A DNA stretch of 64,000 nucleotides, from contig DAOVZN010000001.1 of NCBI GenBank assembly GCA_030635055.1, positions 18,837 to 82,836 on the forward strand. Direction: 5' to 3'. The notes beneath the pieces were generated by a model. That model ran no database searches. It worked only from the letters and a program-made list of their open reading frames with translations, and was not told where the DNA came from. Each line of letters starts with the position of its first letter. Within the stretch, counting starts at the first letter, position 1. Shown here piece after piece: positions 6,086 through 63,026 of the stretch. The DNA comes from a bacterium. Lineage in GTDB: Bacteria; Patescibacteriota; Minisyncoccia; Minisyncoccales; JAGLPU01. A program made the position numbers and the translations under genes.

Positions 6086-6262
6086 CATTTTTTAGCTATC
6101 TTCTGTAAAATCAAGGCTTTCAAAAAAATCTTCAGCATAAAATAGCTGAGAAACAATATTTATTGTTCTTTTTTTAAAAAAACTTGCAATTTTCTTGTTT
6201 TTTTGATAACTTCTATCTATAAGCATTAATATATTAAAACAAACATTTTCAAAAGGACATTT

Positions 6263-7346: not shown

Positions 7347-7787
7347 TTATTCCTTGTTTAAAGAGACCTCCTCATCAGCTTTTTTAAGAATTGTTTTGGC
7401 ATTGTCAAAAGTTAGTTGTTCTTGAGCTTCCTCGTAAGGAAGCCATTGATAACCAGTATGCTCAAAAGAAATCTTTATTTCTTTTGTTTTTGTTTCTGCT
7501 AAATAAAAAACAACTGTTTTAAAAACTATTTCTCCTTTTAATTTGAAAAAATACTTTATTTGTTCTTTAAAGCCAGAAATGAATTCTAATTCTTTAAGTC
7601 CGGTTTCCTCCTCAGCTTCCCTGCTAGCTGTTTCTATCGCCTCTTCCCCTTTTTCCATGTGGCCCTTGGAAAAATCCCAGTAATCTTTACTTGCTCGGGA
7701 GCTGGAGGGATAATGCAAAAGAAGATAATAAATATTATCTTCTTCCTTTCTAAAAATTATAACTCCAGCGGATTTTTCTGTAGGCAT
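7347..7787 (-). CDS. NUDIX hydrolase
   Basis: Nudix box GHMEKGEEAIETASREAEEETG. Confidence 0.85.
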   Translation of the reverse strand: MPTEKSAGVIIFRKEEDNIYYLLLHYPSSSRASKDYWDFSKGHMEKGEEAIETASREAEEETGLKELEFISGFKEQIKYFFKLKGEIVFKTVVFYLAETKTKEIKISFEHTGYQWLPYEEAQEQLTFDNAKTILKKADEEVSLNKE

Positions 7788-47655: not shown

Positions 47656-48996
47656 TTATAAATATAATTGCTCTTTTATTAATTTTATTTCTTCAACCAA
47701 TATTTCGTTTTCCTCTTTTTCTTTGGCAATTTTCGTACAAGCATGGATAGCGGTTGTATGGTCTTTTCCTCCGAACTTTCTTCCAATAGCAGGAAATGAA
47801 TTACTTAATTCGTTTCTTAATAAATACATGGCAATTTGTCTGGGTCTGACAATTTCTTTCTTGCGAGAAGCAGCTATTAAATCTTTTTCCTTCAGATCAT
47901 AAAATTCAGCCACTATTTGGATTATTTTTCTTGGATTAATCACTTTTACCGGCGATAAAATAGCTGTTTTAAGAAGGTTTTTTATAATTAATAGGTCAGC
48001 ATCTTTGTTATTGATTTTTTGATAAGCGGCCAATCTATTTAGGGCGCCTTCTAGCTCTCTGATGTTCTTTTTAATATTAGTGGCAATATATTCTAAGATT
48101 TCGTCAGAGATGTTAACCCTTTTTTCTTGCGATTTAACTTTTAAAATAGCCATCCTAGTTTCAAAGTCCGGGAAATCAACGTCAGCGATCATTCCCCCTT
48201 CAAAACGGGAACGCAGTCTGTCTTCTAAAGCGGAAATAGCCTTAGGAGGACGGTCAGCAGAAAGAATGATTTGTTTATTTTCTTCATATAGAGTATTAAA
48301 AATGTGAAAAAATTCTTCTTGAGTTTTTTCTTTTCCGGCTAAAAACTGGATATCGTCAATAATTAAGACATCGTATTTGCGATATTGTGTTTTGAAACTT
48401 TCAATACTGTGGTCTCTGATAGAATTAACCACTCCGGAAATAAATTTTTCTGAAGGAATATATTTTATTTTTTTTCGTGGAAAGTTTTTTTTCACCTTAT
48501 CTCCGATAGCTTGTATTAAATGTGTTTTGCCTAGTCCCACTCCCCCATAAATGAAAAGAGGATTATAAACGGCGCCGGGATTTTTGGAAACAGCCCATGC
48601 GGCAGCGTGAGGTAATTCGTTAAACGGACCCACTACAAAATTTTCAAAAGTATAACGGGGGTTAAGGTTAGTCTCTCTATTAATTTTAAGCTCTTGGAAT
48701 TCAAGCTGGTCAGTTTCCGGAAGACTTACTGTCGGCTGTTTTTTAAATTCAGTGTGATTCACCGTATATTGAGCTTCTTTGATTCCCTCATCAAGGTTAT
48801 GCAGGGTTTTAAGGATAATCTTATTATACTTGTTTTCCAGCCATTCCTTTGAAAAATTATTAGGGACAGAAACAATTACCAATCCTTCTTTTTTATTAAG
48901 AATTTTAGTGTTTTTAAACCAGGTAGCAAAACTAGCCTGTGAAATATTAAATTGGATTTGAGCAAGAACTGCTTGCCAAAGTTCTTCGTTATTCAT
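47656..48996 (-). CDS. dnaA: chromosomal replication initiator DnaA
   Basis: Walker A GGVGLGKTHL, Walker B VLIIDDIQF, and the C-terminal DNA-binding helix (GGKDHTTAIHA). Confidence 0.95.
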   Translation of the reverse strand: MNNEELWQAVLAQIQFNISQASFATWFKNTKILNKKEGLVIVSVPNNFSKEWLENKYNKIILKTLHNLDEGIKEAQYTVNHTEFKKQPTVSLPETDQLEFQELKINRETNLNPRYTFENFVVGPFNELPHAAAWAVSKNPGAVYNPLFIYGGVGLGKTHLIQAIGDKVKKNFPRKKIKYIPSEKFISGVVNSIRDHSIESFKTQYRKYDVLIIDDIQFLAGKEKTQEEFFHIFNTLYEENKQIILSADRPPKAISALEDRLRSRFEGGMIADVDFPDFETRMAILKVKSQEKRVNISDEILEYIATNIKKNIRELEGALNRLAAYQKINNKDADLLIIKNLLKTAILSPVKVINPRKIIQIVAEFYDLKEKDLIAASRKKEIVRPRQIAMYLLRNELSNSFPAIGRKFGGKDHTTAIHACTKIAKEKEENEILVEEIKLIKEQLYL

Positions 48997-51279: not shown

Positions 51280-51699
51280 ATGTCTGAGGTGATTGAAATG
51301 GAAGGAAAGAAACATAGAATATTCCCACCGATATTTGTTGATAAAGAGAAGAGAATTGGCTTCGGGATTCTTGCTCTATTTTGTCTTGTGATAGTGGGAG
51401 CTTACGCTTTTGGAGGCGGTGGCGATGTTATCGCAGATAGCGTAGGTTGTTATGTGTGCGGCACATGGGTCCCCGTGAGAGAAGTAGGAGGAACAGTTAG
51501 CATAGAATTTAGTAGTGATGGCAGTTTCAACTACTTTGAAAACATGGAAGATGACTGGGCCAGGTTTTCCGCAGCCGGCACATGGGAACAGACAGGAAAC
51601 ACAATAACAGTTGAATATAGAGGACTGAAAGAAACATGTGTTTTAAAAGGAAGAGTCTTGCACGACGAAGATGGCATAGCATGGAAAAAGCTCCGTTAA
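51280..51699 (+). CDS. small membrane-anchored hypothetical protein
   Basis: 139 aa with one TM (IGFGILALFCLVIVGAYAF) and a Trp/Gly-rich C-terminal domain. Confidence 0.55.
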   Translation: MSEVIEMEGKKHRIFPPIFVDKEKRIGFGILALFCLVIVGAYAFGGGGDVIADSVGCYVCGTWVPVREVGGTVSIEFSSDGSFNYFENMEDDWARFSAAGTWEQTGNTITVEYRGLKETCVLKGRVLHDEDGIAWKKLR

Positions 51700-51703
51700 A
51701 AAA

Positions 51704-51740
51704 ATATTTCTGTCTTAATAGGCAGAAATTTTTTTATTTT
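51704..51740. terminator. bidirectional terminator hairpin between convergent genes
   Basis: ATTTCTGTC-TTAATA-GGCAGAAAT flanked by A-run and T-run. Confidence 0.5.
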
Positions 51741-53184
51741 AATATTTTACTTTAACCACTATTAGAGAAGAGCCTATGTCGTTCATGGTGTAGGTAAAGT
51801 TTTTTAGTTCTCCTTTGCGAAGAACCATACATTTACCCGAATAGTTGCTATCTTTATACAGGAAGGCTATATAGTTGCCGTCTGCGCTGATTTCTGCTGC
51901 AGAAATACCACTATCGGTCAAAAGACCGTCCCCTATCGGGTCATCAGGATCAGGAGCCAGCACTCCGTGTTCCTCCCATGTATGAAGCTGTAAATTAGCG
52001 TCTCCTTTGGCCACTGCTTTGCCAGCTAAGCTAAAAGTGTCGCCAAATTTAGTATCAGCAAATCCATAGTAGGTAAATGTGGCAAGATTAGGGACTATTG
52101 TCCCGCCGATACAGCCAAGCGGTGTCCATATGCCTCCAACACAGTAATTATGTTTTTCACAGTTATGCTCGCGGCATAACTTTATTCTCCCATCGTAATA
52201 AGGCTGAATGTTCAAATCAAGAAAAGTCATAGAAGAGGCGCCATAACCTACAGCGTTGTCGGTTAGATCCGGATCATCGTCAAGTATAATGTCGCATTCT
52301 CCTTCATAATGAAAATTCTTATGTAGAGCGACACGGAGATAAGAATTTAAGTCGTCTTTGAATTTAATAGATTTTACTTTATCGTTAAGATTTTCAGTAT
52401 AAAGATTATAGAGATCGGGTTGTTTCGGAAAAAATTTGCACTTGCCGTAATTTGTTTCTTCACAAAGATAAAGACCAGGTTCTCTTTTGTTAACTATTTT
52501 TATTGATTTGGGGGCAAAGCCGCAGAGAGCGGTTATGTCATCGTGATGTCTAGGGGGATTTCCGGATGCTGGGTCAATAGGATCAAGGAATTTTCTCTCT
52601 ATCCCTCCATAGTCTATCTCAGTATAAAAATAAACATCTATATCTTCCACGGAAACAGAATCATTGATTTTGACAGAAAGAGTATTGAAATCACTTAAGT
52701 TGTGCATGGATTGATCAAATCCATAGATACGATGGTCCCCCCCTAAATTTATTTCAGGGTAAAGTTCTATTGCTCCTGACATTTCTATCTTATCTAATCT
52801 TAAAATTGTTAGTTCCGGGTTAATGGTATTTAAAATCAAGAACGAAGAAAGTAGTATCGCCAAACCTATGACCGCTGAGGTTATTTGATCTCTGGCGTCG
52901 CTCATTTTTGCCGGATTACCGCCGGAAGTCATATGTTTGTATCCTCCTAAAATCAAAGCGCTAAAAGCTACTAAGCCGGCAATCATTAAAGCGAAACTGA
53001 AAATATACTCTATATAATCCGGCAGAAGGGTTTTGGTCGAAACAGGCACAGGCACTCCGCCAATTATAGGATAATCAACTTCCAAGTCTGTTTCGCTGAA
53101 ACAAAAACTACTAGGAGCAAGAGTTAAAAAAAAGAATAAAACAAGAATAAAGCCAATGATTTTTTTATGTTTAGTTATTTTCAT
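51739..53184 (-). CDS. pilin-like (VirB2/TrbC-topology) N-terminal module fused to a large extracellular domain with beta-gamma-crystallin-like repeats
   Basis: 481 aa. Signal peptide, DLEVDYP motif, TM hairpin (..FALMIAGLVAFSALILGG...GNPAKMSDARDQITSAVIGLAILLSSFLILNTINPEL), then repeated Y/F-x4-Y/F-x-G ... S modules such as IAFLYKDSNYSGKCMVLRKGELKNFTYTMNDIGSSLIVVKV. Confidence 0.6.
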   Translation of the reverse strand: MKITKHKKIIGFILVLFFFLTLAPSSFCFSETDLEVDYPIIGGVPVPVSTKTLLPDYIEYIFSFALMIAGLVAFSALILGGYKHMTSGGNPAKMSDARDQITSAVIGLAILLSSFLILNTINPELTILRLDKIEMSGAIELYPEINLGGDHRIYGFDQSMHNLSDFNTLSVKINDSVSVEDIDVYFYTEIDYGGIERKFLDPIDPASGNPPRHHDDITALCGFAPKSIKIVNKREPGLYLCEETNYGKCKFFPKQPDLYNLYTENLNDKVKSIKFKDDLNSYLRVALHKNFHYEGECDIILDDDPDLTDNAVGYGASSMTFLDLNIQPYYDGRIKLCREHNCEKHNYCVGGIWTPLGCIGGTIVPNLATFTYYGFADTKFGDTFSLAGKAVAKGDANLQLHTWEEHGVLAPDPDDPIGDGLLTDSGISAAEISADGNYIAFLYKDSNYSGKCMVLRKGELKNFTYTMNDIGSSLIVVKVKY

Positions 53185-53190
53185 ATATTT

Positions 53191-54336
53191 TTAATAAATT
53201 AGATCGCAGCAGAAATAATTAGGGGCCTTAGCCGGATCGGCCGCTTCTTCGCTGCACCTGGGTTTATCAATTTCTAAAAAGTACTTAATAATAGAACAGT
53301 TTAATGTGTCTTTTATAGTGAATATCTCACCTTCAACAACACAGTATCCATCTCCGGCGACAAGTTGCTTATAACATGTTAAAGGTGTAAAACACTGTCT
53401 TAATTCTTTTCTAGCCCCATCTAATTTTGCTGAAATTTGCGTAGGCGTAACCGATGTAGTCAGCGTCATAACATTTAAAAGATCACCGGTAATGTTTAAA
53501 TTATGGATTTGAATATTTGTATAAGAATTATTAATGTTAGTATAATTTGTAAGCGCGTTGCTATAGTAGCCAGTTATTGCGGCAATAGAGGCATCAATGT
53601 CTGTCATGGGGCAGGCGTTATCAGTGCCGTCCCAGCGAGCGCAGCTGGCCTTAGAACCGTCAAGGAGAGTAAAAATATCGCAATTGCAAGGATTCTCACA
53701 GTTAGGGCATTTATAGTATGGTTCGTCGCAGATCCAATCACAGGTCCATGGGAACACTGGTAAACAATCAAGGTGTCCAGAGAAACAGTCATCTGGGCAA
53801 TCATTTGTTGTGTCTATATCATTATTGTCACACATTTTACAACCATGGCGCTTTGGTGTCCCATCCGCATTAAAAACATCAGATTCCAAAAGATCAAATT
53901 CCCATATTTTAGTACAGTTGCATTTTCCGGGCAAACAAGCTCCTGAGCAATCCTCGCAATTATTCGGGCTTCCGTCTGTAAAACCGAGTATTTTATTAGC
54001 TTCTTTTCTCGCTGAATTAGTCGTTTTCGCGATATTCTCTATTAAGAGTATAGCATTATCAACTGCGGAAAACCCTTCGTCTTTAGCTAAAACGGCATTA
54101 TCATAAAGATCTTTGTATTTTATAAGCAGGTCATCGCCGTATTCTTTCGTTTCGTCAACCGCTTCTCCTATGCGAATTTCTGTGTGGCAATCCCATTGTT
54201 CCGTTTTTTCTTGTCCCTGGACAATCTCTTTTTCATTAAATGACAAGAAACAGGAGAGTAAAAGAGAAACCGTCAAAACTAAGAAAGTTTTTATGCCTAT
54301 TCTGTAGATTTTTTTATTTAATAAATAATATTTCAT
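53191..54336 (-). CDS. secreted cysteine-rich protein (27 Cys), unknown family
   Basis: 381 aa. N-terminal signal/anchor, a helical segment, then dense CxxC/CxC clusters (NNCEDCSGACLPGKCNC, YYKCPNCENPCNCD) and an Asn/Thr-rich stretch. Confidence 0.6.
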   Translation of the reverse strand: MKYYLLNKKIYRIGIKTFLVLTVSLLLSCFLSFNEKEIVQGQEKTEQWDCHTEIRIGEAVDETKEYGDDLLIKYKDLYDNAVLAKDEGFSAVDNAILLIENIAKTTNSARKEANKILGFTDGSPNNCEDCSGACLPGKCNCTKIWEFDLLESDVFNADGTPKRHGCKMCDNNDIDTTNDCPDDCFSGHLDCLPVFPWTCDWICDEPYYKCPNCENPCNCDIFTLLDGSKASCARWDGTDNACPMTDIDASIAAITGYYSNALTNYTNINNSYTNIQIHNLNITGDLLNVMTLTTSVTPTQISAKLDGARKELRQCFTPLTCYKQLVAGDGYCVVEGEIFTIKDTLNCSIIKYFLEIDKPRCSEEAADPAKAPNYFCCDLIY

Positions 54337-54342
54337 AGACTA

Positions 54343-55689
54343 TTATTCCACATAATAAAAAGTTGCCGGATCGCCTCCCGGTTCAATTTCTCCATCTCTA
54401 TATTCCTTTAATTCTATGTTTGTTTTTTCAGTTTCTAAAAAAGAATAATAACTCATTATAGAATTATAGGGATTTAATTTTATTATCATTTCAATTTCTT
54501 CCAGGCTGACCAAATCTTTTGTCAGGTTTTCTATTATTTCTTCCGGACTGCCGTAGTCTTGTTCAATTTCTTTTAATCCTGTGCGGTCAGCTTTTGAAAT
54601 CAGATCTTTGGCTTCCGTATCAAGTATAAACAAGGCGTTAATTTCTACTGAATTAGTGGTTTCAAATGCTTCAACAGTATTAGTATCGCTCTTGCTTAAA
54701 AAAGCGTCAATCACGCCGGCAAATAATTCAACCCTTTTTAATTCTTCTTCCACCACCGGTTTTTTGGCAGAGATATTGGCAATAATTTCAGGAATGCCAT
54801 CTATAATATTAAAAGGATCTCTTAGCTCATCCATTCTGGCTCTATCCGGGCAGGTGTCAGTAATAGGGCCGGTATTGCAGGCGCTGCAAGCAGTCATAGC
54901 GTGGCAGCCGTCATTGGTACAGTTATCGCACTTGTTGCCTCCAAATACCCAAAATATAGTGCAATCAGAACTGCAGTTGCTGCATTTACAATCAGCGGCA
55001 AGAGTTGCCAGTTCTATGGACTGGGCTTTTAAGAAGAGGCCAAGATTTTTTAATTTCAAAGACTCATCGTGCAAGACTTCCATTAATTTTTCTAATTTTT
55101 TGTTCGCTCTTTCAAGAGCGTCTCCGGTTTTTTCTAGTCTTTGCAGCCTGGCAGGGTTTAAAATTCCTTCGTAAGCTGAATAGGAGATGCTTAAAACAGA
55201 ATTTTTATTATTAATTAGCGTCCCTAAAGGAAATTCATAAACAGTAATCTTTGGTTCTATATTATAATCCTCGGGGAGAGGCAAAGCTTCAGGATCGTGT
55301 GTTAACGGGGCAAAGGAGAAAAATACCAAGTTAGGATTAATAGTAGATAAGAGGATATAAGAAGAAAGTAAAATTAGCAGTCCAACAATGCCGCAAATGA
55401 TTCGGTCCCTTGCGTCTCTATGAGAGGCTGGGTTTCCCCGGGAAGCTGTATATTGTGCTCCGGCTCTAACTATTACTCCTAAAGCAATAAGCCCGCAAGC
55501 AATGATGGCAAAATTAAAAATATATTTAATGTAGCTATGCAAGAAGGTTCTGGTTGATGTCGGGCTTTCCCCGCTGATTACAGGATAATCAACTTCTAAA
55601 TCTGTTTGGGAAAAAACAAAACCGCCTATAGACATCAGCAAGAGAGAAAGAACAAGAGCTATAATAAATGTTTTGGAATGTTTAATCAT
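54343..55689 (-). CDS. pilin-like paralog with helical stalk and Cys-knot extension
   Basis: 448 aa. The first ~125 aa align by eye with the 481-aa protein (DLEVDYP..., GNPASHRDARDRIICGIVGLLILLSSYILLSTINPNL). A 10-Cys cluster follows: CKCSNCSSDCTIFWVFGGNKCDNCTNDGCHAMTACSACNTGPITDTC. Confidence 0.6.
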   Translation of the reverse strand: MIKHSKTFIIALVLSLLLMSIGGFVFSQTDLEVDYPVISGESPTSTRTFLHSYIKYIFNFAIIACGLIALGVIVRAGAQYTASRGNPASHRDARDRIICGIVGLLILLSSYILLSTINPNLVFFSFAPLTHDPEALPLPEDYNIEPKITVYEFPLGTLINNKNSVLSISYSAYEGILNPARLQRLEKTGDALERANKKLEKLMEVLHDESLKLKNLGLFLKAQSIELATLAADCKCSNCSSDCTIFWVFGGNKCDNCTNDGCHAMTACSACNTGPITDTCPDRARMDELRDPFNIIDGIPEIIANISAKKPVVEEELKRVELFAGVIDAFLSKSDTNTVEAFETTNSVEINALFILDTEAKDLISKADRTGLKEIEQDYGSPEEIIENLTKDLVSLEEIEMIIKLNPYNSIMSYYSFLETEKTNIELKEYRDGEIEPGGDPATFYYVE

Positions 55690-56245
55690 TTTTTAACTCG
55701 CTTACTACAGTTAAGCTCCAGAAAGGAAAAACTTGGATAATAGGGACTAAGGTGCCGACAAAAGACCTAAATAATTTTAGAGCTATCTTACCGCCACTTC
55801 TCGCCGCTGTTTTTACTGCCGTTTTTGTAACTACTCTTTTTGTCGTTGTTTTTTTTATTCTTGTCGCTGCTGCTCTTTCCGCCTCCTGTGCCATATCTTT
55901 TTCCGTGGCCTTGGCCACTCCTTTTTCTGATTCTTTGGCGTCAGCCTTAGTGGCAGCTCTGTCTTTTTTAGTTAAATTTGTATCCGGTAGGGTTATCTCC
56001 GGTTCTTCTATCGTATCTATTTCTTCTTCCTCCTCTTCCGTTGATGCTTTTTTACCGCTTGCGCGAGAATACATCCATGAGCCGACTATTATTAAACAGA
56101 AAAAGTCTAAGATTAAACAAGAGATAATAGCTGCCAGTGCGCCTATTATCGTAGGAAGCAAGAGTGTTGTGACAATGCTTACTAAGTCGCAAGCTCCGCC
56201 CACTATTAACATTGCTACTCCTTCCGGTCTGGTAAAACTAGACAT
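55682..56245 (-). CDS. membrane protein with two N-terminal TM helices, charged low-complexity linker and C-terminal hydrophobic helix
   Basis: 187 aa. 8-nt overlap with the downstream pilin-like gene and a 2-nt gap after the VirB4 gene. The linker is EEEEEEIDTIEEPE followed by a Lys/Thr/Ala-rich stretch. Confidence 0.55.
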   Translation of the reverse strand: MSSFTRPEGVAMLIVGGACDLVSIVTTLLLPTIIGALAAIISCLILDFFCLIIVGSWMYSRASGKKASTEEEEEEIDTIEEPEITLPDTNLTKKDRAATKADAKESEKGVAKATEKDMAQEAERAAATRIKKTTTKRVVTKTAVKTAARSGGKIALKLFRSFVGTLVPIIQVFPFWSLTVVSELKND

Positions 56246-56247
56246 AT

Positions 56248-58029
56248 TTATTCTGCTTGTTTAGCTCTTTTTATTTTCAGAATTTCTTCGGGAGAGGTGG
56301 TGATTATTTGGTCCTCGGCATAAGAGGCGACAACTTTAACTAAAACATGCTTTTGTCCGGCGAAAAATAATCCCTCCCCTATCGCTGCCTCTAAGAGCAT
56401 GTATTTTTCTTCGTCAGTCAAATTAAAAGTCTTTTGGACGATGTCTATGCTTGCCGGGCTTTGTTTCATCAGAAATTGCAAAGAGGAATTAGTGATAATG
56501 GGACGGCCATAGCTTGATTTCATAAAGTCAGCCACATCCTGGGTAATAGTGGTAAGTCCCAACCAGTATTTCCGTCCCCTTTTCGCAATGCCGAAAAGGA
56601 AAGAAGCTCCATCTTCCGTTTTCATCAGCCACCATGCTTCGTCGATAACCAGAATTCTTTTCTTTAGCTCTGAGCGAACCTTGTTCCAGATGTATCTCAT
56701 GATGATAAACATTGCCATGGGCCTGAGTTCGTCTTCCATGTCCCTTATGCCAAAAGCAACCAAAGAAGAATCCATAGAGATGTTGGTGGGCTGGTTAAAG
56801 AAATTTGAAAAAGTTCCTTCAGTGAATTTAGCCATCCGTTTTAATAAAGAGTCAGTCCCATCCATTCCTTCCAGCACTGACTGCAAGTCTTCCATTAAAG
56901 GGATATTATCCGGCCAGGCGTCTGGATCGCTATCTATAGTAATATCATGGGAGGCATAAGTTTCAGTCAAAGCCTGGTCCATAATACTGTCTTCAGCCGC
57001 TGACAGACCGCCAAGCATAATTCTTAATAACCCCACTAAGTTGATAATATTGGAGCGGAGGATATCTTCCGGCTTTTCTCCTTCCCTGGGGCAAGGCAGG
57101 TCAAAAGGATTGATATGATTATCTGATGATAAAGAAATATTAAAGAAAGATCCTCCTACTGCGTCAGCCAAAAACTGATATTCGTTTTCCGGGTCAAGAA
57201 TAATGCAATCCACTCCCAACATTAAAGAGCGCAACAGTTCCAGCTTTACCATGTATGATTTACCGGAACCGGATTTGGCAAAGATTACACAGTTGGCATT
57301 TTCTAAACTAAATCTGTCAAACAAAATTAAAGAATTGTTATGTTGGTTTACCCCGTAAAGGATTCCTTCATTCGAGCTTAAATCAAAGGAAATAAAAGGG
57401 AAAACGCTGGATAAAGGGCCGGTGTTCATCGGTGTATAGACCTGAAGTTCATCCAAACCATAAGGCGCAGAAGAAGTAAATCCCTGTTTTTGCTGGTAAA
57501 GAGCGGGTTTGATATAGATTAAGCGTGATTCCAGAATTGAACGAAGCTCGGTTTCAGTGCTTATTAATTCTTTTTCGGTATCAGCGTAAATAGTCAGATA
57601 TATGCCAAGATTAAACATTCTTTCCTGAGCGGTTTGTAACTGATCTCTTAAAGTTTCTAAGTCTTGATGCGCAGTTTCCAAAACCGGATCGCGAACCAAT
57701 CCTTTCTCTTCTTTCTCCATAATCTCGGCTTGAACTTCGGTTACTCTTTTTCTTAAATCCTTTAAGGTTCTTTCGGTTTCGATAGGATAAACAAAAAAGG
57801 AAATATCCATTGGCGTATCCAGATTGATTATTGGAGAAAACCAGCCTGTTGTCAGATATCTGGGATAAGAAAAAATGAAAAAGCTTTTAGTGAGCCTTTC
57901 CCCTACTTTTGAATAGCTTTGAGCAATTTCAATAAAAGAAGGAGCGATAATATCAACAGCTTTAAGAGTGTCTATCTCAAAAATTCTTTCAGGGACTCCT
58001 TCCTTCTTTTTTTTAAAAAATGGGAACAT
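56248..58029 (-). CDS. virB4: VirB4-family type IV secretion ATPase (C-terminal 593-aa part)
   Basis: Walker A FAKSGSGKSY and Walker B ILVIDEAWWLM. The N-terminal segment SYSKVGERLTKSFFIFSYPRYLTTGWFSPI resembles the middle region of Gram-positive VirB4 proteins (Tn916 Orf16 / PrgJ type). Confidence 0.85.
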   Translation of the reverse strand: MFPFFKKKKEGVPERIFEIDTLKAVDIIAPSFIEIAQSYSKVGERLTKSFFIFSYPRYLTTGWFSPIINLDTPMDISFFVYPIETERTLKDLRKRVTEVQAEIMEKEEKGLVRDPVLETAHQDLETLRDQLQTAQERMFNLGIYLTIYADTEKELISTETELRSILESRLIYIKPALYQQKQGFTSSAPYGLDELQVYTPMNTGPLSSVFPFISFDLSSNEGILYGVNQHNNSLILFDRFSLENANCVIFAKSGSGKSYMVKLELLRSLMLGVDCIILDPENEYQFLADAVGGSFFNISLSSDNHINPFDLPCPREGEKPEDILRSNIINLVGLLRIMLGGLSAAEDSIMDQALTETYASHDITIDSDPDAWPDNIPLMEDLQSVLEGMDGTDSLLKRMAKFTEGTFSNFFNQPTNISMDSSLVAFGIRDMEDELRPMAMFIIMRYIWNKVRSELKKRILVIDEAWWLMKTEDGASFLFGIAKRGRKYWLGLTTITQDVADFMKSSYGRPIITNSSLQFLMKQSPASIDIVQKTFNLTDEEKYMLLEAAIGEGLFFAGQKHVLVKVVASYAEDQIITTSPEEILKIKRAKQAE

Positions 58030-58044
58030 ATTTAAAATAAATTA

Positions 58045-58701
58045 TTATGTTGTTAGTTCTGGCGGGATTTCAGGGTAATAACCAATTTCCGCTTGCTTGG
58101 GGTGGTGCAGAGCCCAAAACAGTTCAATTAATTCGCCGGTAGTTAAAGGAACGGCTTTCAGCCCGCATCTTCTTAATCCTAAAACAACGAACTCCATTCT
58201 TTGCCAAAGCTGAGTTTTGCATCTTTGGAATATCTCTTCGGTCAAATTGGGCGCTTTCTGCTTTTTTTTGGATTTTATGGAACTAGTAGCTAGGACAGAA
58301 GTGCTGAAAGGAACCACTAAAAAGAAAGTCTTTGACATAATGGTGCCTGTTTTCACTAATCCTTGAATAAACTCTATATAACCGGTAGTTTGCATTTTAA
58401 GAAGTTCGTTTTGCTGCTTTGCTTCTATCTCTTTTAATTTTTCAATATAGCCGGTAATGTTAAGTTTTCTTGATTGAACCAGGATTTGGCAGCCGAAATC
58501 CATAGAATTAAGAAAATTCTGGAATTGATAAATGGTGGCAGTTTGTTCTTCTTCTGACTTCAAAGCGAAATTTAAAGAAGAAACCATTAAAACTCCCCTA
58601 AAGGATTTGTTTTTTAAAATGATAACTCCTTCCCTTATTTGTTTTATTTTTAAAAAGTCTTGAGTTGCTGATTTAGCCATGTTGTGTTCTGTTAACTTCA
58701 A
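58045..58701 (-). CDS. VirB4 N-terminal-domain-like protein (separate ORF, same frame as the ATPase)
   Basis: 218 aa. IREGVIILKNKSFRGVLMVSSLNFALKSEEEQTATIYQFQNFLNSMDFGCQILVQSRK resembles the extreme N-terminus of Gram-positive VirB4 proteins. It ends in TAA TAA, 15 nt before the ATPase ATG and in the same frame. Confidence 0.5.
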   Translation of the reverse strand: MKLTEHNMAKSATQDFLKIKQIREGVIILKNKSFRGVLMVSSLNFALKSEEEQTATIYQFQNFLNSMDFGCQILVQSRKLNITGYIEKLKEIEAKQQNELLKMQTTGYIEFIQGLVKTGTIMSKTFFLVVPFSTSVLATSSIKSKKKQKAPNLTEEIFQRCKTQLWQRMEFVVLGLRRCGLKAVPLTTGELIELFWALHHPKQAEIGYYPEIPPELTT

Positions 58702-59101
58702 TTTGAGTGAATAATTTTTTTAATTTGCTTCTGCCGGCAATTTCCGGAAGAATGTATTGTTTTTTCTTTATATCTTCTTCGCTCTTTTTAGGCATTTTTT
58801 TGATTACAAATTTAGGCGGCATAACTTTTCTTTTCCAAAGAAATATTTTAGAAGAAAGAGCAAAAATTAAAAAGTTTCTGAAAACTATCTCTAAGCTTTG
58901 TCCGTTGATTTTTAAAAAAGTGAGGGAACCCACTGCGCCGACAAGAGTGACGGAAGCCATTAAGAAAAAGAAAGGAGGCAGAGAAACTTTAAAAAAATAG
59001 CAAGCAGCTGCCGTCAGAACAATAATGATAAACTGGCGGAAAGTAAGCGGACCTACTATTTTTGGTTTTCGGTCAATAAATTGTGGAACCTGAAATCGCA
59101 T
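58673..59101 (-). CDS. PrgI/VirB3-like small membrane protein
   Basis: 142 aa. MRFQVPQFIDRKPKIVGPLTFRQFIIIV followed by two TM helices, positioned immediately upstream of VirB4 as in Gram-positive T4SS loci. Confidence 0.55.
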   Translation of the reverse strand: MRFQVPQFIDRKPKIVGPLTFRQFIIIVLTAAACYFFKVSLPPFFFLMASVTLVGAVGSLTFLKINGQSLEIVFRNFLIFALSSKIFLWKRKVMPPKFVIKKMPKKSEEDIKKKQYILPEIAGRSKLKKLFTQIEVNRTQHG

Positions 59102-59645: not shown

Positions 59646-60791
59646 GTGATAAGAATGATAGGATTTCTAATAGGATTAGTAACAACTATAGCAACGGCGG
59701 TAGCAATATTGGTATTAGCGGCAGTGGCAGGCTTTCTTATAGTCTATTTCTATTTGGCTCCGAGAAACTATTTTTTTACTTTTGTAAAAGAAGGTTCAGC
59801 TAAAGCCATTATGAGAGCCGGTAAATTTGAAAAGATTCTTATCCAATGGGAAGGTCGTGGGTTAACTGAAAACGGCGATGTAAGTTGGTTCGAAGAAGAC
59901 AAGAGTTTTCTCAGGCGCTTGTTCGGTGGCCTTTGGTATTATGGATTTTGGCCGCTGCACGATGTCTATATCTATAAATTTGACTGGACTGGGATAAAAG
60001 AAAATGGAGAACCAAATCCTCACCAGGGGAAAACGCTTGATTACATCTTAGTAAAAGAAGATGTTTATCGGGTAGAGATTAAAGATGCTGAGGACAAAGA
60101 TTTGCTTCATTTATTAGTGGAAGTAGTTATGCCTATAAGAATTGTTAACCCGCGGAAGGCGCTATTTGATGTGGAGAATTGGTTGGAGGCAGTGATTGCG
60201 CTAGTGGCGCCTGCAGTACGAGATGCAATTACCCAAGACACTTATAAAAACCACATTAGAAACCCAGAGTCATTAGGGGAAAAAATATTTAGTCTTTTAA
60301 AAAAGCAGATAAAAAGATTTGAAAAAGACTATGGTGTAAAAATTCTTGATATAGGTATAAAGAATATAGATCCTCCTGAAGAATATCGGGAGGCGAGCAT
60401 TAAAGAATATCTTGCCGAACAAGAGAAAAAAAGAATTAAAATACTGGCAGAAGCGCAAAAACAAAAGTTGATAACTGAAGCCGAAGGAGAAAGACGAAGA
60501 ATAGAAAAGGTATACGGGCAGACTGACAAAATGGGTTATATCGGTCAATTAAAAGCGATATTAGAATCAATGGAAAAAACAGGAATGGCTGGTGTCTACG
60601 CTGTGCCAGGGCTTAAGGAATTTATAGGAGAAGCCGTTGGTAAACCCACAGAAAAGATAACTCCTGAGGATATTGCAATTTTTAGAAAAGTGGCTGAAGA
60701 AGAAATTGCAAAATCAAAAAAACCTAAGTCTGCAAAAAAGAAAAAACCTGCCAAAAAACGCAAGGAGGTTACTAGAAAAAAGAAAAATTGA
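59646..60791 (+). CDS. SPFH/band 7 domain protein with Lys-rich C-terminal tail
   Basis: 381 aa. N-terminal TM, an SPFH-like core, a coiled coil (EQEKKRIKILAEAQKQKLITEAEGERRRIE), and the tail KSKKPKSAKKKKPAKKRKEVTRKKKN. Confidence 0.75.
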   Translation: MIRMIGFLIGLVTTIATAVAILVLAAVAGFLIVYFYLAPRNYFFTFVKEGSAKAIMRAGKFEKILIQWEGRGLTENGDVSWFEEDKSFLRRLFGGLWYYGFWPLHDVYIYKFDWTGIKENGEPNPHQGKTLDYILVKEDVYRVEIKDAEDKDLLHLLVEVVMPIRIVNPRKALFDVENWLEAVIALVAPAVRDAITQDTYKNHIRNPESLGEKIFSLLKKQIKRFEKDYGVKILDIGIKNIDPPEEYREASIKEYLAEQEKKRIKILAEAQKQKLITEAEGERRRIEKVYGQTDKMGYIGQLKAILESMEKTGMAGVYAVPGLKEFIGEAVGKPTEKITPEDIAIFRKVAEEEIAKSKKPKSAKKKKPAKKRKEVTRKKKN

Positions 60792-60794
60792 GAG

Positions 60795-60826
60795 AAAAAA
60801 AGAGGCTGAAATTCAGCCTCTTTTTC
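60795..60826. terminator. bidirectional terminator between convergent genes
   Basis: AAAAAA-AGAGGCTGA-AAT-TCAGCCTCT-TTTT. Confidence 0.6.
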
Positions 60827-63026
60827 ATGAGTCAAACCCGGCTCCTCCTTGTCCTCTAGGAGGTTTTCCCTTTTTTTTAGAAGGCTTTATCTCTCTTGGT
60901 CCGGTCACTCCTCGTGGTTCTTCAGGTGGCTGTAGCTTTTTCTTTATCCAGCCCGTTAGTTTTTTTCGTTTCTTTGTTTTCTTTATATCTTCTTCGCTTT
61001 CTTTTTCCATTACATCCATTTGGCCTAATGTCTCTTTCCATCCTTCGTTCGTTAGATCCCTATCTTCTGTAACTTTTTCAAATTTTCCAAGTATTTTCTC
61101 CTGCCACTCTTTTTGTTCCTGTTCGCTTTTTTGAGGAACATCAATGTTTTTTATTTCTTTCAAAGTTTCCAAGAAGTTTTCTTTGCCTTGAGGATTATTG
61201 CGGCTCATAGATTTGTAAAATCCTTTGCCTAGATACTGCATGAACGCCGTGACAAAAGCCTTATCCTTAAAGACATCAGCGCCCATGTCTTTTATGTCTT
61301 CAACTCTTACTTTGTCTCTTGCCACTGCCTCTACTGCTTCGTCTTCTGTCATTTTTCTCTTTGTCATTTTACCAGTCTTAGTATCTCTCTTTTCTATATA
61401 TTCATAAGCTCCTATGTTTCCAGCCGCCAATCTTGCCAATCGAGGATTATTTCTTAAAATAGGAGTTAATTCACCTCCTTTATTAGCATCTACTAATTTT
61501 GGAGTTATTAATTGCTTGAATCTTTTATCTTTTATAACCTGATCATCTGTACTGAGCTTATATTGTTTTTTAGCTGCATCAAACAAGTCCTGCACATCGC
61601 CGTTTTTGGCAAGTTGTTTAAGGGCGGCAGTGCCGCGTATTTCTGACAAATCTTCGGTCATCAGTCCATGAGCCAAAGAGCCGGAATTTCTGTAAGAAAG
61701 CTCTTTTTGGGCGGTTTCAATCGACCCTTTGTGCTCGGCATATTTTCTAAGCCCTTCCGGGACAGCCCACCTGGCTATATTATGTTTTTCCCATTGTCTT
61801 GTTACGCTACCTGCTATTTCTCGAGTTTTTAACTTTCTTTCAATTGGAGCGGCAATTCTCTCTCTGACCACTCTTGTGCCTCCTTTTCTCATCCATCCTA
61901 AGGCTTTATTTCCATATTTTTTGCCGCCGCTTATAACCCCTCCGGCGCCCATTGGCGTGGTTTTAATTGCAGTAAGAAAACCGATGAATAACAATACCAT
62001 ACAAACAATATAAGGCATTATTGTGTCTAGATAACCACTGCTGCCGGCTAAGATTTTGCCGATGGAAATAACATTAGTGTCCACCATATATCCTTTTAGC
62101 TGGTTGGACAAGAACAGAAAAAAAGCTAAAGTTATACCGATAATATTCCATTGTAAAAATTGGTTCCACCATTCTTCCCAATGTAATATTCCCGGGAATA
62201 GTTTTTTTGTTAAACCGCTTTCTTTAAAAATATAGGTAAAGAATGCTATAGGCGACAGAATAACCAGAATCCATAACATAACATATCGAGTGATGAATAA
62301 AGCAACAAAGAGGAAATAAATAAAAGCAGTCATCAAACTTATGAAAATATGAATGATGGTTTTAAACATAAAACTAAAAGAAAGAATTTCAGATATAGCG
62401 CTGAAGCCCATTAAGCTTGATGTTATTTCTTTATATTGTTTGGTAAATTCATCTAAAACAGATCCCCAACCGGTGACTCCGTCTAGAAAATAGTTCATTG
62501 CAATATTGGAAGCGTCAATAATAACTCCACATATCACCGGAGTGAAATTAATTAACAACAGGATAATAAATAAACGAGGCAAAGTTTTCTGCCACTGGTA
62601 TTCTTGGATTCTCAAAGCGGTTCCCAGCCCAATAAAAGCTAAAATAATAATAAAGCCCATATTGACCAAGTTTCTAACAATGTTCCATCCTTGAATCACA
62701 AATTCGTTGGAAGTGAAAGAAACATTAATAAAATAGGGACTGGTCACTATCGTTAAAAGCCCCGCCGCCGCCGCCAAAAGAACATTGGCAAGAAGTAAAA
62801 GGAATTGCAAAACTACATCTTTGAGAAGAAGAAAGGATATGCTAATACCAAAAAGTGCGTGAGCGGAAAAAATCGGCAATGTTATTCCTAAAACTGAAAA
62901 CAATAAAACAGCCATCCAACGCTGTTTTTTATTTTTTTGAAAATATGAAACTTTATCTATAAATTTTCTGAGAAATTGTTTCATAGAAGCAAGAGGTTTG
63001 TAATCATCTATATTATTATAACACAA
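60825..63026 (-). CDS. large polytopic membrane protein, VirB6/TcpH(Orf15)-like candidate, with about 330-aa cytoplasmic C-terminal region
   Basis: 733 aa with about 8-9 TM helices in the first 400 aa, then a charged soluble region and a basic Pro/Gly tail. The call rests on architecture and genomic context only. The start may be the internal MKQFLRKF at 62984. Confidence 0.45.
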   Translation of the reverse strand: MCYNNIDDYKPLASMKQFLRKFIDKVSYFQKNKKQRWMAVLLFSVLGITLPIFSAHALFGISISFLLLKDVVLQFLLLLANVLLAAAAGLLTIVTSPYFINVSFTSNEFVIQGWNIVRNLVNMGFIIILAFIGLGTALRIQEYQWQKTLPRLFIILLLINFTPVICGVIIDASNIAMNYFLDGVTGWGSVLDEFTKQYKEITSSLMGFSAISEILSFSFMFKTIIHIFISLMTAFIYFLFVALFITRYVMLWILVILSPIAFFTYIFKESGLTKKLFPGILHWEEWWNQFLQWNIIGITLAFFLFLSNQLKGYMVDTNVISIGKILAGSSGYLDTIMPYIVCMVLLFIGFLTAIKTTPMGAGGVISGGKKYGNKALGWMRKGGTRVVRERIAAPIERKLKTREIAGSVTRQWEKHNIARWAVPEGLRKYAEHKGSIETAQKELSYRNSGSLAHGLMTEDLSEIRGTAALKQLAKNGDVQDLFDAAKKQYKLSTDDQVIKDKRFKQLITPKLVDANKGGELTPILRNNPRLARLAAGNIGAYEYIEKRDTKTGKMTKRKMTEDEAVEAVARDKVRVEDIKDMGADVFKDKAFVTAFMQYLGKGFYKSMSRNNPQGKENFLETLKEIKNIDVPQKSEQEQKEWQEKILGKFEKVTEDRDLTNEGWKETLGQMDVMEKESEEDIKKTKKRKKLTGWIKKKLQPPEEPRGVTGPREIKPSKKKGKPPRGQGGAGFDS

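Follow-up and report, generated by a model that had tools for sequence, protein, structure and literature searches.

Classical VirB2/TrbC/TraA pilins belong to diderm systems and consist of a single small module. In Patescibacteria, type IV secretion systems (T4SSs) are widespread, lie beside the replication origin, and usually lack a relaxase (PMC12102498, PMC10633639, PMC12857230), and VirB2-like pilins occur as arrays in their loci, close to dnaA (PMC12102498). The one tractable species, Southlakia epibionticum, cannot grow epibiotically without its T4SS and T4SS pilins (PMC10633639, PMC12857230). Here, we analyzed a 64-kb stretch of DNA from an uncultivated, ultra-small Parcubacteria bacterium (the window, to whose positions all coordinates refer unless a related locus is named) and, within it, a minus-strand gene at 51739..53184 that joins a VirB2-like pilin module to ∼350 amino acids (aa) predicted to adopt the beta-gamma-crystallin fold. 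On balance, we favor by a little the view that it encodes a modular T4SS pilin-like protein.

The gene had been singled out in an earlier note on this DNA, which described a pilin fused to Greek-key repeats. We recovered its open reading frame exactly: 481 aa, intact, with an ATG start and no internal stops. All strings quoted in that note were located in the protein, with DLEVDYP at aa 33-39, GGNPAKMSDARDQI at aa 88-101, LYLCEETNYGKC...KSIKF at aa 238-275, and IAFLYKDSNYSGKC...VVKV at aa 439-479. The protein is 100% identical to the NCBI “hypothetical protein” KAR26_00725 [Candidatus Parcubacteria bacterium]. Because its orthologs P0002-P0007 (41-48% identity) align along 92-100% of its length, the fusion is neither a frameshift nor an assembly artefact. 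Its parts, as delimited by hydropathy, family profiles, and an AlphaFold2 (AF2) model, are the following.

51739..53184, minus strand: whole gene of the 481-aa candidate modular pilin-like protein (open reading frame; KAR26_00725 match; stop codon at 51739..51741)
53095..53184, minus strand: predicted signal peptide, aa 1-30 (hydropathy; AF2 helix 6-30)
53017..53094, minus strand: conserved, acidic start of the mature protein, aa 31-56, with the LEVDYP motif; predicted extracellular
52810..53016, minus strand: pilin hairpin, aa 57-125, with transmembrane (TM) helix 1, the TSGGNPAK loop (short and basic), and TM helix 2, which ends in LNTINP (PF18895; AF2)
52786..52809, minus strand: flexible linker, aa 126-133 (AF2 per-residue confidence, pLDDT, <50 at aa 128-133)
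52486..52785, minus strand: predicted beta-gamma-crystallin domain 1 (D1), aa 134-233, Greek keys 1 and 2, with Ser170 and Ser227 (AF2 strands; clostrillin match; hhalign against D2)
52207..52485, minus strand: predicted beta-gamma-crystallin domain 2 (D2), aa 234-326, Greek keys 3 and 4, with Ser272, Ser318, and NDKVKS at aa 267-272 (Protein S match)
51742..52206, minus strand: predicted beta-gamma-crystallin domain 3 (D3), aa 327-481, degenerate Greek key 5 and canonical Greek key 6 (partial Pfam Crystall match; flavollin 3hzb; hhalign)
51901..52137, minus strand: 79-aa clade-specific insertion within Greek key 5, aa 350-428 (predicted beta-hairpins; Cys348 and Cys358)
51766..51783, minus strand: sole canonical Ca-binding-type motif, [ND][ND]xx[ST]S, as NDIGSS at aa 468-473 (motif comparison)

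The N-terminal module is T4SS pilin-like. Pfam T4SS_pilin (PF18895) matched aa 58-120 of the whole protein at 32.2 bits (cut-off 26.6), and the isolated module scored 37 bits. Hydropathy delineated hydrophobic segments at aa ∼6-31, 57-83, and 99-123, the last two separated by the loop TSGGNPAKMSDARDQ; in the AF2 model, helices 54-86 and 91-121 form a hairpin with pLDDT 84-92. The signal peptide and two hydrophobic helices claimed for the first ∼125 aa were thus seen by both approaches. Among related N-terminal modules, 19 of 20 matched PF18895 (best 3.9e-22) and 3 of 20 also matched TrbC/VirB2 (PF04956; best 1.6e-4), which may provide a transitive link to the classical pilins, while the target itself gave no PF04956 match in the Pfam scan. 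A weak match to NCBIfam NF045849, a Mycoplasma integrative and conjugative element (ICE) “pilin-like conjugal transfer protein,” lay below threshold. By profile, hairpin, and context, the target belongs to PF18895. The claim of a pilin-type module therefore stands, supported by a family score above cut-off and by an operon with VirB4 and PrgI/VirB3; the contrary case that the earlier note had allowed for, a mere signal-anchor that matches no pilin profile, is not what we found.

Compared with the VirB2-like pilins of Patescibacteria, the target has the same profile match, the same combination of signal peptide and hairpin, and the same position beside VirB4/PrgI near dnaA, in a locus that likewise has more than one divergent pilin gene. 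It differs in its additional ∼350-aa folded ectodomain, and its locus encodes long modular pilins only, two of them. With VirB2/TrbC/TraA (PF04956; T-pilus, F-pilus), it shares the two-helix hydrophobic hairpin with a short polar loop and the VirB4 machine, whereas it departs from them in the missing PF04956 match, in a profile that matches no solved pilin, and in size, the 481 residues running ∼350 aa beyond the module where single-module pilins are ∼70-130 aa when mature.

The -3/-1 rule and the C-x-A|Q of aligned homologs place the most likely signal-peptide cleavage after Ser30 (C-F-S|E). In the mature N-terminal segment that follows, E35, Y38, and P39 are invariant or nearly so among homologs, and AF2 confidence is low (pLDDT 55-66). 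Basic residues cluster in the hairpin loop (K83, H84, K93, R98), and both flanks of the hairpin (the mature N-terminal segment on one side, the residues that follow TM helix 2 on the other) are acidic; by the positive-inside rule, this distribution fits a topology with the loop inside and both ends outside. With the loop in the cytoplasm and both ends out, the crystallin domains would be displayed outside the cell. In F- and T-pili, the lumen is lined by the hairpin loop and the termini face outward, so a C-terminal fusion would be topologically compatible with display on a filament exterior.

Two other assignments of the N terminus were rejected. A lipoprotein anchored through the conserved Cys28 would require a lipobox, and there is none, the -1 residue being Phe. 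A type IV pilus prepilin was discarded on two grounds, a +5 residue other than Glu and an excess of two TM helices; in the class III signal peptide test (MKITKHKKIIG|FILVL), the +5 residue after G11|F12 is Leu. Type IV pili nevertheless offer an analogy, and only an analogy, to the architecture. The Streptococcus sanguinis pilins PilB and PilC bear grafted adhesin modules and, like the target as proposed here, combine a polymerisation module with a folded adhesive or lectin module. Their filament is unrelated; the target has no class III signal peptide, and its two-helix hairpin contrasts with the single N-terminal helix of those pilins.

For the C-terminal region, we combined structure prediction with family-level profiles. 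AF2, run on the target with a 53-sequence alignment, returned a mean pLDDT of 83.1, a predicted TM-score (pTM) of 0.63, and an all-beta structure over aa 139-479, mostly above 85. Foldseek against the PDB yielded 62 matches at E ≤1e-3, the top 50 of which were all beta/gamma-crystallins or Myxococcus Protein S, with E values down to 2.7e-6 and, for two-domain gamma-crystallins, a target-normalised TM-score of 0.64-0.68 at an rmsd of 4.9-6.0 Å. The Greek-key fold that structure prediction had been expected to reveal in residues ∼130-481 was accordingly recovered in the model. A 20-sequence family profile found Protein S (5e-5), flavollin 3hzb (8.8e-4), clostrillin (3.6e-3), and spherulin 3a in the PDB through three different parts of the profile. 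Comparison of sub-alignments by hhalign linked D1 with D2 (probability 96.9%, E 1.6e-10) and D2 with D3 (probability 96%, E 4.6e-9), the D1-D3 comparison being weak. Together, the model and these profiles indicate that aa 134-481 are three homologous crystallin domains with six predicted Greek keys. D2 is the best conserved, and its stretch retrieves Crystall-positive proteins in an exhaustive search (below); the same domain gave the marginal gamma-E crystallin match (E 0.036) of a single-sequence PDB search with the C-terminal region.

Motif counting gave a poorer account of the repeats. The strict pattern [YFW]x4[YFW]xG occurs twice in the C-terminal 356 aa (aa 187 and 443; shuffle P ∼0.05), and a relaxed Greek-key pattern is not enriched there (P ∼0.19); we dropped motif counting as proof of repeats because it was too weak and relied on profiles, hhalign, and fold. 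The five or more Greek-key segments proposed in the earlier note are thus real as repeats, six in three domains by hhalign, PDB profiles, and AF2/Foldseek, but the strict pattern by which they had been recognized appears only twice. The strict signature is present in two of the six Greek keys, with H288 in place of the first aromatic of motif 4. The conserved Ser is kept in five of six (170, 227, 272, 318, 473). Greek key 5 is strongly degenerate in the target clade, with Cys337 and Cys342 for the aromatics and Ala429 for the Ser. By these signs, the crystallin sequence signature of the target reads as divergent. The 79-aa insertion in Greek key 5 is confined, in alignment A1, to the target and P0002-P0007; its strands at aa 352-395 are predicted with pLDDT 85-90, dropping to ∼56-65 at aa 401-420. 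In the same alignment, the distant members P0008-P0027 share an additional conserved Cys pair (…GxC…DCLSS…) in their last Greek key, which is missing from the target clade.

The calcium-binding property often associated with these domains is mostly lost. The motif at aa 468-473 is canonical in six of the seven close-clade sequences (the target and P0002-P0007), whereas NDKVKS (267-272) has Lys at the Ser/Thr position and the other four Greek keys are also non-canonical. No domain of the target has the motif in both of its Greek keys, the arrangement that marks the Ca-binding subgroup. Any Ca2+ binding by the target is uncertain and would involve one site at best. Like the microbial beta-gamma-crystallins Protein S, clostrillin, flavollin, and spherulin 3a, the target has predicted double Greek keys, a motif-end Ser, tandem domains, and a predicted extracellular or secreted location; unlike them, it has few strict motifs, a Pfam score below cut-off, a nearly vanished Ca motif, and the 79-aa insertion. 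We regard it, on predicted structure and family profiles, as a divergent member of the beta-gamma-crystallin fold, mostly non-canonical for Ca binding.

Conservation differs sharply between the two halves. We calculated identity per region within the close clade and between the target and 13 distant members. The hairpin (aa 57-125) is 75% identical in the close clade and 58% across the distant members, compared with 62% and 39% for the mature N-terminal segment (aa 31-56), 38% and 16% for the signal peptide (aa 1-30), and 26-42% and 6-20% for the crystallin domains and insertion, the insertion being the fastest-evolving part at 26% in the close clade. The hairpin keeps family-wide invariant Gly/Pro positions and the TSGGNP and LNTINP motifs. 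As the hairpin is the most conserved part, and a paralog in the same operon shares this module only, we do not regard it as a generic anchor. Such a pattern is consistent with a module held constant by specific packing or by contacts with a machine and joined to a fast-evolving, exposed surface.

The genomic context is that of a T4SS. The target is the last gene of a T4SS operon on the minus strand, ∼2.7 kb from dnaA, and the last four genes are joined by gaps or overlaps of ≤8 nt. In operon order, a 733-aa hydrophobic protein and a 123-aa protein are followed by a PrgI/VirB3-like protein, a 218-aa VirB4-N/TrsD-like protein, VirB4, a 187-aa protein, the 448-aa paralog, a 381-aa Cys-rich protein, and the target.

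60825..63026, minus strand: 733-aa protein with long hydrophobic stretches, a VirB6-like candidate by position only (no family match)
58673..59101, minus strand: PrgI family, VirB3-like (PF12666, 9.5e-9, 36.1 bits, cut-off 27)
58045..58701, minus strand: 218-aa protein resembling the N-terminal part of VirB4, TrsD/TraC-like (NCBIfam matches)
56248..58029, minus strand: VirB4-like T4SS ATPase, 593 aa (PF19044, 1.2e-22; NF045971 CD1110-family VirB4, 354.6 bits, cut-off 325)
55682..56245, minus strand: 187-aa membrane protein (a gene of 174-179 aa at the equivalent position in related loci)
54343..55689, minus strand: paralogous pilin-module protein, 448 aa (module profile, E 6.5e-38)
53191..54336, minus strand: 381-aa Cys-rich protein with an N-terminal hydrophobic segment, adjoining the target upstream
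51706..51729, unstranded: hairpin with T-runs on both sides, between convergent genes (consensus scan only)

The same gene order is kept around orthologs P0005 (locus L001) and P0022 (L002 and L003), at 28-47% identity: VirB6-like candidate, PrgI, TraC-like, VirB4, ∼175-aa protein, protein A, protein X, crystallin pilin, and jag-yidC-yidD-rnpA, followed by rpmH in L001 and dnaA in L002. In the window, jag, yidC, yidD, rnpA, and rpmH lie on the opposite side of the 51706..51729 hairpin, a probable bidirectional terminator ending the operon, and are followed by dnaA (47656..48996) and dnaN. The VirB6-like candidate position holds a 657-aa gene in L001 and one of at least 902 aa, running off the locus end, in L002. 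The 218-aa protein matched N-terminal positions of VirB4_plasma (5.1e-9) and conju_CD1110 (1.9e-5) as well as TrsD (3.6e-4), and its equivalents in L001 and L002 carry PF26593 TraC-like; VirB4 seems to be split, an N-terminal-like protein whose gene overlaps that of PrgI preceding the 593-aa ATPase. Among the annotated cluster genes, the Pfam and NCBIfam scans recognized no coupling protein, relaxase, VirB5, or VirB7-11.

A hidden Markov model (HMM) of the pilin module, run over the entire window, found two copies only, the target and the paralog. These are 48% identical over aa 1-125 (BLASTP 2e-26; ∼121 aa) and unrelated beyond; the paralog continues with long helices and a Cys-rich stretch, and AF2 (mean pLDDT 58.5) is confident in its hairpin only. 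The 187-aa protein, marginally matched by the module HMM (E 0.0096), might be a very divergent pilin-like component. It is hydrophobic near both ends (∼aa 12-58 and ∼158-180) with a Glu/Lys/Ala-rich middle, and its gene overlaps the start of the paralog by 8 nt. The 381-aa Cys-rich protein had no family match in Pfam or NCBIfam, and a BLASTP comparison with the Cys-rich region of the paralog was not significant (E 0.06); genes of 327 and 432 aa occupy its position in related loci. The operon is closed by a conserved three-gene cassette of a pilin-module protein (A), a non-pilin secreted protein (X), and the crystallin pilin, found at 53191..55689 on the minus strand plus the target in the window, at 7633..9996 in L001, and at 6236..9996 in L002. 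The C-terminal domain of protein A varies by genome, being helical and Cys-rich in the window and a lamin-tail domain in L002 (822 aa).

Searches for homologs showed how far the two modules travel together. Among the first 53 homologs, T4SS_pilin was found in 51, Crystall in 11 (best 1.3e-8), and Inhibitor_I36 in 9. We then searched 1.84 billion representatives exhaustively by phmmer, with aa 132-481 as the query, and obtained 70 matches, 5 of them full length. In a Pfam scan of the 65 others, Crystall was present in 51 (best 6e-109), Inhibitor_I36 in 49, and Crystall_3 in 29; T4SS_pilin was also present in 14, so that, by profile annotation, the pilin-crystallin fusion recurs in at least 14 further cluster representatives. 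Remote relatives pair crystallin domains with M23, trypsin, C39, and CHAP (proteases and cell-wall hydrolases). Homologs with the N-terminal module alone, which the earlier note had suggested looking for, were found in a module-only search as stand-alone pilins of 125-228 aa (30-45% identity). Among relatives from Patescibacteria-type metagenomic contigs, large C-terminal ectodomains are commonly found on pilin modules. Homologs of the paralog include pilin-module proteins of 336-773 aa, one with a Peptidase_C39-like domain and another with an SLT_3 lysozyme-like domain, and Pfam placed LTD, SLT_3, and peptidase C39-like domains on other proteins matching the module model or the paralog. These annotations suggest a design in which the assembly module stays constant and the head, where there is one, is exchangeable. 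In one homolog, P0030 (549 aa), the pilin module and crystallin domains are followed by a C-terminal Hint/intein-like domain (Intein_splicing, Hint_2; ends ...LLIHNK), which may point to self-processing, or to an ectodomain that is released, in certain lineages. The architecture that the earlier note called unusual is so relative to classical VirB2/TraA pilins but is not unique among relatives. The domain combination is latent in precomputed Pfam annotations of database proteins, yet we found it undescribed in the literature searched. The main texts of PMC12102498, PMC10633639, and PMC12857230 do not mention C-terminal ectodomains on Patescibacteria pilins, and neither these papers nor the supplement searched mention crystallin domains on pilins. 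The literature searched contained nothing relevant linking crystallins to T4SSs or Candidate Phyla Radiation (CPR) pilins and, for microbial beta-gamma-crystallins, described no fusion to a pilin module.

Taking these results together, we think it somewhat probable that the hairpin recruits the target into a T4SS pilin assembly, with the crystallin array as a surface for partner or host contact. In this mechanism, a Sec-type signal peptide (aa 1-30) would be removed and the VirB2-like hairpin (aa 57-125) would insert in the membrane with its basic loop in the cytoplasm and its ends outside, placing the three tandem beta-gamma-crystallin domains (aa 134-481) on the cell exterior. Because the target ends a conserved VirB4/VirB3-type operon and its hairpin is far more constant than its ectodomains, we propose that, through its hairpin, the target enters the pilin assembly, be it stalk or filament, by docking or co-polymerisation, recruited by the VirB4-type machine and with the paralog at 54343..55689 as its partner. 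The stable crystallin array would then present an exposed, fast-evolving contact surface, a putative adhesin or host-recognition element, in a host-dependent Parcubacteria cell. Several points weigh against this mechanism. Polymerisation of PF18895 proteins is itself putative, and the module profile found no solved VirB2/TraA pilin in the PDB, only TM-helix noise (E >0.3). The module HMM detected no short stand-alone pilin encoded in this locus or in two related loci, only two long ones; as a result, for the target to be a minor or tip pilin of a fibre made from a major pilin, that major pilin would have to be encoded elsewhere, or the fibre would have to consist of bulky subunits. An ectodomain of 40 kDa per subunit, an estimate rather than a computed value, may be sterically demanding. 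On the crystallin side, relatives match the Crystall profile (PF00030) above cut-off, but the score of the target, 19.5 bits, falls short of the cut-off of 25 and covers aa 441-466 only; the Ca-binding motifs are mostly degenerate, being canonical in one of six Greek keys; and a ligand-binding or adhesive role of the domains is putative.

The most serious alternative is a membrane-anchored surface protein that does not polymerise, in which the hairpin would be a bitopic anchor or a dock at the T4SS base and the crystallins a coat or static contact patch, without a pilus. A beta-gamma-crystallin in such a role is known, Myxococcus Protein S being a spore-coat protein. The missing short major pilin, here and in related loci, and the hindrance that bulky ectodomains would be expected to pose to tight helical packing also favor this alternative, as do the classical monoderm T4SSs that have no pili (PMC12102498, PMC12857230) and the continuing debate over pilus formation by Patescibacteria T4SSs (PMC12857230). 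We hold it possible but doubtful: the conservation of the hairpin, set against that of the signal peptide, goes beyond the needs of a simple anchor, as do its invariant Gly/Pro positions and two retained motifs, and the position of the gene in the T4SS operon is strictly conserved. Less probable still, and in our judgment improbable, is an inhibitor or toxin-like effector module at the host interface, displayed or released, instead of an adhesin. Its models would be the Streptomyces metalloproteinase inhibitor (Inhibitor_I36) and yeast-killer-toxin-like single-domain crystallins, and it draws on the Inhibitor_I36 matches among homologs and remote relatives (very weak in the target itself, E 0.45) and on the remote relatives that join crystallins to hydrolytic domains. 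Inhibitor_I36 and Crystall, however, form one fold superfamily and overlap on the same stretch, so the I36 matches are no specific functional evidence, and a release or processing site was not identifiable in the target sequence. We consider it very improbable that the crystallin likeness arose from chance motifs, or that structure prediction produced it artefactually from a beta-rich surface protein of low complexity. The two strict motifs at borderline significance, the sub-threshold Crystall score, the marginal single-sequence PDB match, and the shallow AF2 alignment of 53 sequences would all allow it, but the profile-to-PDB matches, the hhalign repeats, the strong Crystall scores of relatives, and the Foldseek top 50 concur in the opposite sense.

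Going beyond recruitment of the target into a pilin assembly, the Parcubacteria-type T4SS filament or stalk might itself be built from modular conjugative-type pilins with large folded ectodomains, making the pilus a host-recognition organ. In such a filament, the target would bring three crystallin domains, and the partner pilin may bring a helical/Cys-rich or LTD module. We offer this tentatively, as a possibility that we do not expect to hold. If true, ectodomain swapping on a constant hairpin would retarget host range, and these proteins would give the VirB2/TraA pilus class its first naturally occurring subunits with an ectodomain.

A few further features of the neighborhood were recorded. 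The T4SS cluster contains, on its opposite (plus) strand, an SPFH/Band 7 gene at 59646..60791, which separates the PrgI-side genes from the 733-aa candidate; at the equivalent place, L001 likewise has a gene on the opposite strand (363 aa). Downstream of the target and convergent with it, the plus-strand gene at 51280..51699 codes for 139 aa with a single TM segment; its lipocalin-like match (PF13648, E 0.0021) is weak and below threshold, and L001 has a 140-aa gene at the equivalent position. The cumulative GC-skew minimum and a switch in gene orientation fall at ∼38-40 kb of the window, and dnaA/dnaN at 46.3-49.0 kb on the minus strand, placing the skew-inferred origin and dnaA ∼8-10 kb apart.

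The pilin-crystallin fusion widens the known contexts of microbial beta-gamma-crystallins. If polymerisation is confirmed, it would represent a new design for conjugative-type pilins; if the target is a mere membrane-anchored coat protein, the result does not go much beyond a helpful annotation for a family of “hypothetical proteins.” By joining a pilin hairpin to a predicted three-domain extracellular array, this conserved gene of a T4SS operon becomes a testable candidate for a host-contact element, and the fusion may be how host-dependent, ultra-small Parcubacteria touch their partners.

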